Positions 978 through 1,466 of a stretch of 5,231 nucleotides of DNA are shown piece by piece (within the stretch, counting starts at the first letter, position 1; each line of letters opens with the position of its first letter). Source of the stretch: a virus (lineage: Duplodnaviria; Heunggongvirae; Uroviricota; Caudoviricetes); the IMG/VR virus record IMGVR_UViG_2529293218_000002, positions 1 to 5,231 of that record; one strand, 5' to 3'. The translations under genes were made by a program, and so were the position numbers. Below the pieces are notes generated by a model. It did not search any database, had not been told where the DNA came from, and saw nothing but the letters and a program-made list of their open reading frames with translations.

Positions 978-1466
978 ATGAGTCTTTTGAATGACGTTCA
1001 GAAATTCATTGAAGCCCATCCGGGCTGTACTTCCGGAGACATTGCGGATGCTTTTGCAGGTTACTCACGGCAGCGCGTTCTGCAGTCTGCAAGCAAGTTA
1101 CGTCAGAGTGGGCGTGTGGCTCACCGTTGTGAAGGGGATACACGCAGACATTTCCCGCGCCTGACTGAGAGAGCGCAGGAGCCGGAACCACAACCAGTTC
1201 GTGAAACCAGACCTGTGCGCAATTTCTATGTCGGCACTAACGATCCCCGGGTGATTTTGTGCCTGACCCGCCAGGCTGAAGAACTGGAGTCCAGGGGCTT
1301 ATACCGTCGTGCTGCAACGGTGTGGATGGCGGCATTCCGTGAAAGCCACTCCCAGCCAGAACGAAACAATTTTCTGGCGCGTTGTGAGCGGTGCTTACGG
1401 AAAAGCAGCAAGCGCGCTGTATCGGGTGAAGAGTGGTATCTGTCAGGGAATTACGTGGGGGCTTAA
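978..1466 (+). CDS. Hypothetical small protein, possibly PerC-family / YfdN-like
   Basis: ATG at 978 preceded by SD agggggtga (967..975) at 5 nt spacing; the six-frame track's GTG at 972 is an alternative start that overlaps the upstream stop (GTGA). The C-terminal half contains AEELESRGLYRRAATVWMAAFRE, which matches my recollection of the PerC/Pch family motif. Stop TAA at 1464..1466. Confidence 0.55.
   Translation: MSLLNDVQKFIEAHPGCTSGDIADAFAGYSRQRVLQSASKLRQSGRVAHRCEGDTRRHFPRLTERAQEPEPQPVRETRPVRNFYVGTNDPRVILCLTRQAEELESRGLYRRAATVWMAAFRESHSQPERNNFLARCERCLRKSSKRAVSGEEWYLSGNYVGA

Follow-up and report, generated by a model that had tools for sequence, protein, structure and literature searches.

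What is the role of a small gene that sits between the replication initiator and the DNA methyltransferase of a lambdoid prophage, and whose product resembles the virulence regulator PerC? The question is raised by positions 978 to 1,466 of a 5,231-nucleotide (nt) stretch of IMG/VR virus record IMGVR_UViG_2529293218_000002 (Caudoviricetes; positions 1 to 5,231 of the record, the whole of which is here called the window). A preliminary description of the sequence had pictured the product as a PerC/Pch-like protein with a winged-helix N-terminus, carried as a moron that regulates the host. By sequence the gene is an ortholog of Escherichia coli yfdN, already known and widely annotated. We hold with moderate confidence that it is a two-domain PerC-family yfdN ortholog of the early-right operon of lambdoid (SfV/SfII/mEp460/CPS-53-type) phages, and that it serves the phage itself as a DNA-tethered adaptor or regulator.

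The coding sequence (CDS; 978-1466, plus strand) runs from ATG 978 to TAA 1464-1466 and encodes 162 amino acids (aa) according to the open reading frame (ORF) list and the sequence, with GTG 972 as an alternative start that gives the 164-aa form of the RefSeq annotation. The ORF list, the sequence and profile matches of the flanking genes all agree that this is a real ORF between a replication gene and Dam, as had been described, and its product matched PHROG 1324 ('transcriptional activator') over its full length (aa 1-161, 1e-76). Judged by profile and pairwise comparisons, the C-terminal half is a genuine PerC-family core with a resemblance to PerC far beyond chance. Pfam PF06069 (PerC) matched residues 98-150 at 33.0 bits (E 7.5e-8), above the gathering cut-off of 22.6 bits, and relatives down to ~25% identity scored 26-35 bits. 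BLASTP against authentic PerC from enteropathogenic E. coli (EPEC; pMAR2, 89 aa) gave 33% identity over 58 aa (E 1e-5), and hhalign of 29 YfdN-type proteins against a PerC/Pch profile gave a probability of 98.7% (E 1.6e-16, 55 columns). In the alignments, YfdN-type proteins, PerC and Pch have the signature A..LE..G.[YW]RRAA..W...R..C in common and share every invariant column. The peptide from which the family had first been recognised, LTRQAEELESRGLYRRAATVWMAAFRESHSQPERNNFLARCERCLRKS, is an exact match to residues 96-143 of the 162-aa protein. Failure to match a PerC profile had been named beforehand as the result that would overturn the family assignment; the match exceeds the cut-off, so the assignment stands.

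The likeness to PerC does not extend over the whole protein. The PF06069 match is confined to profile positions 5-57 of 90, and the C-terminal extension ..K.AV..MG..[FW]R.Y of PerC and PchA-E (~35 aa) is replaced by WYLSGNYVGA in the YfdN-type protein. PerC and Pch proteins are single-domain and of ~90-104 aa (PerC 89, PchD 89, PchE 90, and 104 for the reference group-1 Pch, a 315-bp gene of an O157:H7 genome as described in PMC5931665), whereas the 162 aa of the window protein include an extra winged helix and a linker.

An AlphaFold2 model of the full protein, made with a 20-sequence alignment, divided it into four parts, all encoded on the plus strand. Residues 1-60 (978..1157) are predicted to form a winged helix-turn-helix (HTH) domain, with three helices and a beta-hairpin wing, a predicted local distance difference test score (pLDDT) of ~90 and a basic character (isoelectric point 9.4); the predicted structure thus has the elements of a winged HTH and bears out the earlier impression of the N-terminal half. 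The Pro/Glu-rich linker (aa 61-88; 1158..1241) had pLDDT values <50 at aa 63-83 and is variable in length and sequence in the alignments. The PerC/ANR-type three-helix core (aa 89-149; 1242..1424), with the motif A..LE.RGLYRRAATVW...R..C, was modelled confidently over aa 90-149. Its helix-turn-helix repeats pack similarly to those of solved tetratricopeptide repeat (TPR) domains in the predicted model, and we regard the core as predicted TPR-like. The acidic C-terminal tail (aa 150-162, GEEWYLSGNYVGA; 1425..1463) has the signature of the subfamily, [WC]-Y/x-L-[AS]-G-x-[YF]-x-G, and was modelled at a pLDDT of ~40 in the full-length protein and as a short helix when the domain was modelled. This signature was kept in two-domain relatives (24-47% identity) and in short forms, and was absent from PerC and PchA-E. 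A PDB sequence search with the full protein returned nothing at E up to 10, and a BFVD structural search gave no significant match (best E 0.4), with phage 'ANR family' proteins as the top neighbours at that non-significant level. The winged helix was also considered as a copy of the initiator's own N-terminal winged helix, which would imply competition for iterons; this idea was rejected on BLASTP, which found no similarity between the two.

An exhaustive HMMER search of 1.84 billion representatives recovered 92 proteins, of which ~25 were full-length two-domain relatives (138-165 aa, 24-47% identity). All of the latter share the N-terminal MSL..[VI]..FI..NPG, the core, and the C-terminal [WC]-x-L-[AS]-G-x-[YF]-x-G. 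At least two clades fall under the label 'PerC family transcriptional regulator', a short PerC/Pch clade and the YfdN clade. The experimentally studied PerC-family proteins that we found in the literature are all members of the former, with none from the latter. PchD and PchE were examined as possible YfdN-type proteins, which would have supplied experimental data, and were set aside because both are short and single-domain. Proteins P0026, P0027, P0030, P0039 and P0103 (186-234 aa) join an HTH_36/DnaD_N initiator N-terminus to most of YfdN and are probably deletion fusions in decaying prophages. P0185, a 462-aa repeat protein with six core-motif matches, was not used as evidence.

The 489-nt gene is common. 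It is 100% identical to a gene in the E. coli O157:H7 FRIK944 prophage beside tRNA-Thr/proA. Of 5426 complete E. coli genomes, 2674 carry it under the annotation 'yfdN: PerC family transcriptional regulator'; homologues with 98% identity bear the labels PerC family or yfdN. Fifteen records of the phage collection (SfII, mEp460, several Stx2c phages and others) covered ≥80% of the window, some of them labelling the gene 'PerC transcriptional activator family protein' or 'putative protein YfdN', and the best 80 matches in a protein-based IMG/VR scan were exclusively 98-100% identical copies. The synteny with CPS-53 (yfdO-yfdN-yfdM) that the preliminary description had proposed for comparison was confirmed, with an intact yfdN between two truncated neighbours. 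The window gene and the CPS-53-type copy are 96.9% identical in DNA, with 4 amino-acid differences in 164 codons. Codon differences from the remnant copy (11 synonymous, 4 non-synonymous) and its intact state beside truncated neighbours suggest that yfdN is under purifying selection. Uhlich et al. termed yfdN 'the K12 unique PerC homologue' and deleted it from their ler::lacZ host as a precaution (PMC5931665). Other mentions of yfdN in the literature are indirect (a hit in an ASKA glycogen screen, prophage-gene co-induction, and a multi-gene filamentation region), and we drew no mechanism from them. As an annotation the result adds little, the gene being already named in thousands of genomes.

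The gene is closely fitted into its operon. The O-like replication initiator upstream (85..975, plus strand; HTH_36 N-terminus, Pfam 5e-11; PHROG 391 'replication initiation O-like', 8e-131) ends at TGA 973-975, which is overlapped by GTG 972 (GTGA 972-975), with ATG 978 2 nt further on; the same junction (967..980, plus strand) includes a Shine-Dalgarno-like AGGGGG at 967-972. Downstream, the stop codon overlaps the start of the phage N6-adenine methyltransferase Dam (1466..2119, plus strand; Pfam Dam 4e-45; TIGR01712 8e-76) in TAATG (1464..1468, plus strand), a 1-nt overlap in RefSeq coordinates. With overlaps at both junctions, the gene is not arranged as an autonomous transcription unit. 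We found no sigma-70-like promoter or terminator flanking 978-1466 on the plus strand, and the GC content of the gene (0.54-0.57) equals that of its neighbours. It has neither the distinct composition nor the sporadic, variable position of a moron, its position being conserved down to ~25% identity, and the earlier claim of a moron inside the replication module is on these grounds not upheld. Group-1 pch offers a contrast: it comes after holin, lysozyme and Rz and has a gap of 466 nt upstream and a convergent gene downstream, the textbook position of a moron. As a separate observation, terminator-like hairpins were more frequent in the window than in shuffled sequences (13 versus 4.9 +/- 2.1). 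Eight of the 13 lie on the minus strand, antisense to the operon, and one falls within the gene (1419-1406).

The position is conserved well beyond E. coli. Searching the loci of relatives with a 7-sequence subset of the 29-sequence alignment showed an HTH_36 initiator immediately upstream of the gene in Shigella (64% identity), Citrobacter (47%), Phytobacter/Kosakonia (~36%) and Leclercia (25-27%) prophages. The ATGA/GTGA-type initiator junction was present in all lambdoid-type relatives examined, among which the C-terminal domain of the initiator differs: it is Phg_2220_C or DnaD_N-like in some, and in others none was detected. Prophages of these five genera, and IMG/VR contigs, keep the order initiator, PerC-core gene, Dam, LexA-DNA-binding-domain (DBD)-like gene, RusA. 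The usual downstream gene is Dam, a larger Dam fusion or D12+C5 methyltransferase (L011-L015, L117), and otherwise a LexA-DBD-like or DUF968 gene. The larger Dams have 393-425 aa with an N-terminal Dam and a C-terminal half that has no assignment (L012:6445-7644, L014:6387-7664, L015:6456-7685, L117:6840-8021), and the double methyltransferase (C5+D12) encoded by L011:524-2362 has 612 aa. The relatives' operons examined contain no homologue of P, DnaC or DnaB, and neither these nor a primase gene is present in the early operon of the window or in the annotated FRIK944 prophage (L001). The HTH_36 initiator must recruit the host helicase alone or with an unrecognised partner. By following the initiator in operons that have no P, DnaC or DnaB, the gene sits in the slot held by P in lambda, a comparison of position only.

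The end of the initiator gene is itself conserved. Its C-terminal tail, REDPYFKASYDNVDYSQIPAGFRG followed by the stop codon (901..975, plus strand), occurs on unrelated initiator bodies before YfdN-like genes, with the consensus ...DP.FK.SY..VDYSQ.P.GFRG, and may be a partner element. Initiators that share the tail can have unrelated bodies, as do mEp460 gp43 and the window initiator, and degenerate versions were found in Phytobacter and Leclercia loci; besides the window, the tail-bearing loci are L002, L005, L008, L010, L012, L014, L015, L117 and L181. Because the tail is shared while the initiator body is unrelated, many phage matches begin at window position 900, a mosaic joint just upstream of the tail. 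We scanned IMG/VR for the tail plus stop codon, whatever follows, and recovered at least 120 highly redundant contigs. Among the matches listed, 118 of 120 tail-bearing contigs have a YfdN-like ORF directly downstream, and the contigs collapse to four initiator clusters, three of which are followed by a PerC-core gene (window type, 62 contigs; mEp460/SfV type, 39; Phg_2220_C type, 11). Initiators of the Phg_2220_C type precede a 78-aa short form consisting of core and tail with no winged helix (PerC, 26.1 bits). One tail-bearing contig (L181) has a D12 Dam directly next and no PerC-core gene. The tail usually, not always, travels with a PerC-core gene. TPR-like folds, of which the core is predicted to be one, often bind C-terminal peptides, and this makes an interaction between the initiator tail and the core a reasonable hypothesis, with synteny as its only evidence. 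The conservation of GFRG may in part simply encode the Shine-Dalgarno sequence of the downstream gene. From the fixed place after the initiator and the co-travelling tail comes a hypothesis that is both concrete and cheap for this very common gene.

The initiator gene also contains an iteron-like array at window 322-483, with ~6 copies of the 15-nt unit TCTGACCCGTCAAAA at 15-nt spacing and two accompanying inverted repeats (338-357/420-439 and 361-378/381-398). By analogy this array is probably the phage origin. The lambda ori lies within O.

If the gene were a prophage-borne Pch-like moron, its job in pathogenic E. coli would be the activation of host virulence loci (ler/LEE1). The core is genuinely PerC-family, LEE1 is activated by group-1 Pch and PerC, and the identical copy in an O157:H7 prophage means that a LEE-positive host (LEE, locus of enterocyte effacement) is available; Uhlich et al. 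found cross-talk plausible enough to remove yfdN from their reporter host (PMC5931665). However, the gene organisation is not that of a moron, and the gene is carried by about half of complete E. coli genomes, K-12-type commensals included, as well as by prophages of LEE-less Salmonella, Citrobacter, Hafnia, Phytobacter and Leclercia. Its product also does not have the C-terminal extension common to PerC and PchA-E. Even within the short clade, ler activation is a property of group-1 Pch only, with PchD and PchE barely active (PMC5931665, PMC6265319), and a PerC-like protein from a phage-inducible chromosomal island (PICI) represses LEE1 (PMC11773190); PchD, PchE and PICI PerC-like proteins fail to activate LEE1 or even repress it. 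We consider a dedicated virulence role improbable. The virulence-regulator function of the short PerC/Pch clade should not be transferred to the YfdN clade, and where prophage risk is called ('carries a PerC virulence activator') the gene ought not, on present evidence, to be scored as a virulence determinant. Still more improbable in our estimation is that the protein is a C-protein-like controller of the downstream DNA methyltransferase, with the winged helix regulating Dam expression or the core modulating Dam activity. Dam, a Dam fusion or D12+C5 does follow in the window, L011-L015 and L117 with a TAATG-type overlap, and PchD lies after ibrA/ybdM (PAPS-reductase-like and ParB-like). Yet L005, L008, L010 and many E. 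coli copies have a LexA-like gene and no methyltransferase downstream, L181 has Dam with no PerC-core gene, and there is no separate promoter between the genes on which a controller could act.

A replication accessory in the 'P slot' is a more serious alternative, which we nonetheless think unlikely. The core or the C-terminal tail would bind either a replication protein of the host or the conserved tail at the C-terminus of the HTH_36 initiator and help to assemble or regulate the replisome at the phage origin, with the winged helix anchoring the protein near the iterons. That the gene comes next after the initiator and overlaps it by codons throughout the lambdoid-type loci examined is consistent with such a role, as are the missing helicase and helicase-loader genes of the prophage and the sharing of one tail by unrelated initiator bodies with a mosaic joint just upstream. 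So too are the PerC-core genes that come next in 118 of 120 tail-bearing contigs among the matches listed and in three of four clusters, the short form included, the predicted TPR-like core with its potential for C-terminal peptides, and the placement of PchE directly after primase and single-stranded DNA-binding protein (SSB) genes in a satellite-like element. This evidence is purely syntenic, however, and the 120 contigs are highly redundant. The tail-bearing L181 initiator is followed by Dam with no PerC-core gene, Kluyvera genes pairing a winged HTH with a PerC core follow RecE/RecT and not an initiator, and the CPS-53 remnant keeps yfdN intact beside a truncated initiator. Every characterised homologue is a transcription or nucleoid modulator, and the conservation of GFRG may partly reflect a Shine-Dalgarno sequence. 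The more specific proposal is slightly more doubtful again: that YfdN-type proteins are initiator-coupled replication accessories and not virulence regulators, with a TPR-like core that recognises ..VDYSQ.P.GFRG-COOH of unrelated HTH_36 initiators and fills the lambda P slot in phages with no helicase loader of their own. If true, a module that began as part of the replication machinery of mobile elements would be the ancestor of the PerC/Pch/ANR regulators of pathogens.

We favour instead the reading of YfdN as a phage-intrinsic, DNA-tethered adaptor or regulator. On prophage induction or infection the protein would be produced together with those of replication and the nin region, and its basic winged helix would place it on DNA. 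The PerC/ANR-type core would make protein-protein contacts that remodel a nucleoid-protein or regulator complex during lytic development, and an influence on host genes, if there is one, would be a by-product and not the reason for the gene's presence. We infer the adaptor mechanism from the characterised relatives, the Pch and ANR proteins. Pch relieves silencing by H-NS, StpA and Hha, lowers their occupancy at LEE1 and associates with DNA loci (PMC4764244), and the ANR protein Aar has three helices, binds AggR and H-NS directly, and oligomerises (PMC4983702, PMC5570504). Several points weigh against this account. Co-precipitation of Pch with H-NS was not seen (PMC4764244). Some winged helices bind proteins instead, and DNA contact by this one is something we infer. 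In some phages this slot is filled by the 78-aa short form, which has no winged helix; tethering to DNA therefore cannot be indispensable for what the core does. The structures are predicted models, and TPR-like matches over three helices have limited specificity. The score of the YfdN core with the ANR model (24.2 bits) falls short of that model's curated cut-off of 32 bits, our literature search found no experiment on any YfdN-type protein, and a role in replication would explain the close association with the initiator gene and its tail no less well than one in transcription.

The rest of the window is a lambdoid nin-type region encoding a LexA-DBD-only protein, RusA, KilA-N, DUF968/HNH and a Q-like antiterminator. 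The LexA-DBD-only protein (108 aa, window 2116-2442) has the LexA DNA-binding domain (Pfam 2.9e-19) with no S24 peptidase domain, is kept in the same module of distant relatives (L005, L117), and could be a non-cleavable LexA mimic at SOS boxes. The Q-like antiterminator ORF (window 4668-5153, 161 aa) covers positions 1-164 of the 253-position PHROG 127 profile, and its FRIK944 counterpart is annotated at 753 bp; the copy in the window may be truncated or of a shorter mosaic type. The window Dam also matched positions 283-492 of 495, the C-terminal part, of a PHROG named 'PAPS reductase'. An Rfam scan of the window found no RNA family, and PADLOC gave no defence-system match for YfdN.

Compared with known systems, YfdN of E. 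coli K-12 (CPS-53/KpLE1) is the same gene, with the same two-domain architecture and the same place between a yfdO-type initiator and a yfdM-type Dam. Initiator and Dam are both truncated in CPS-53, whereas in the window both are full-length within an apparently intact early operon. The helicase loaders lambda P and SPP1 G39P occupy the same slot, right after the initiator and translationally coupled to it, and are positional analogues only, with no sequence or profile similarity to YfdN detected. G39P is a small helical protein with a flexible C-terminal tail.

PerC (EPEC pEAF plasmid) and PchA/B/C (prophages of enterohaemorrhagic E. coli), which activate LEE1/ler and counter its silencing, have a ~55-residue core homologous to that of YfdN. 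They are single-domain proteins of 89-104 aa with a C-terminal extension of their own, whereas YfdN has no such extension and adds a winged helix and its own tail. Their settings also differ: pch stands alone after the lysis cassette, perC is inside the perABC operon, and yfdN is embedded after the replication initiator. PchD, PchE and the PICI PerC-like proteins (EcCIMP1_025; EcCIEDL933/EcCICFT073) are, like YfdN, PerC-family proteins on mobile elements, and they do not act as ler activators; unlike YfdN they have 89-90 aa, no winged helix and a PerC/Pch-type C-terminal extension. PchE adjoins replication genes (primase, SSB) as YfdN adjoins the initiator. In the Sakai genome, PchD (ECs_1388, L225:7878-8147, SpLE1) is directly after ibrA (PAPS-reductase-like) and ybdM (ParB-like), and PchE (ECs_1588, L226:1773-2045, satellite-like Sp7) is directly after primase, a small ORF and the SSB gene. 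Short PerC-family genes too tend to adjoin DNA replication or modification genes, and are not only in moron positions. In Kluyvera spp. (loci L016-L021, e.g. L017:5935-6387), a MarR-like winged helix is joined to a PerC core in proteins of 140-156 aa that do not have the YfdN tail. The gene comes after RecE-RecT and before a DUF4060 gene, so the two-domain architecture is not strictly tied to initiators, and the protein is either a second, independent pairing of winged helix and PerC core or a very divergent branch.

The ANR family (Aar, Rnr) has a three-helix core with a signature similar to that of YfdN. Its members are small anti-activators with AraC-type regulators and H-NS as binding partners. 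ANR proteins are <10 kDa and single-domain, whereas YfdN, which has three helices in its core, is ~18 kDa as a whole with its added domain and sits below the curated cut-off. With the ANR model (NCBIfam NF033650), Pch scored 13.6 bits, PerC 18.2, the full window protein 22.4, the YfdN core 24.2 and a distant YfdN-type relative 28.8. Given this order of scores, PerC and ANR look like one superfamily, with the YfdN clade between them.

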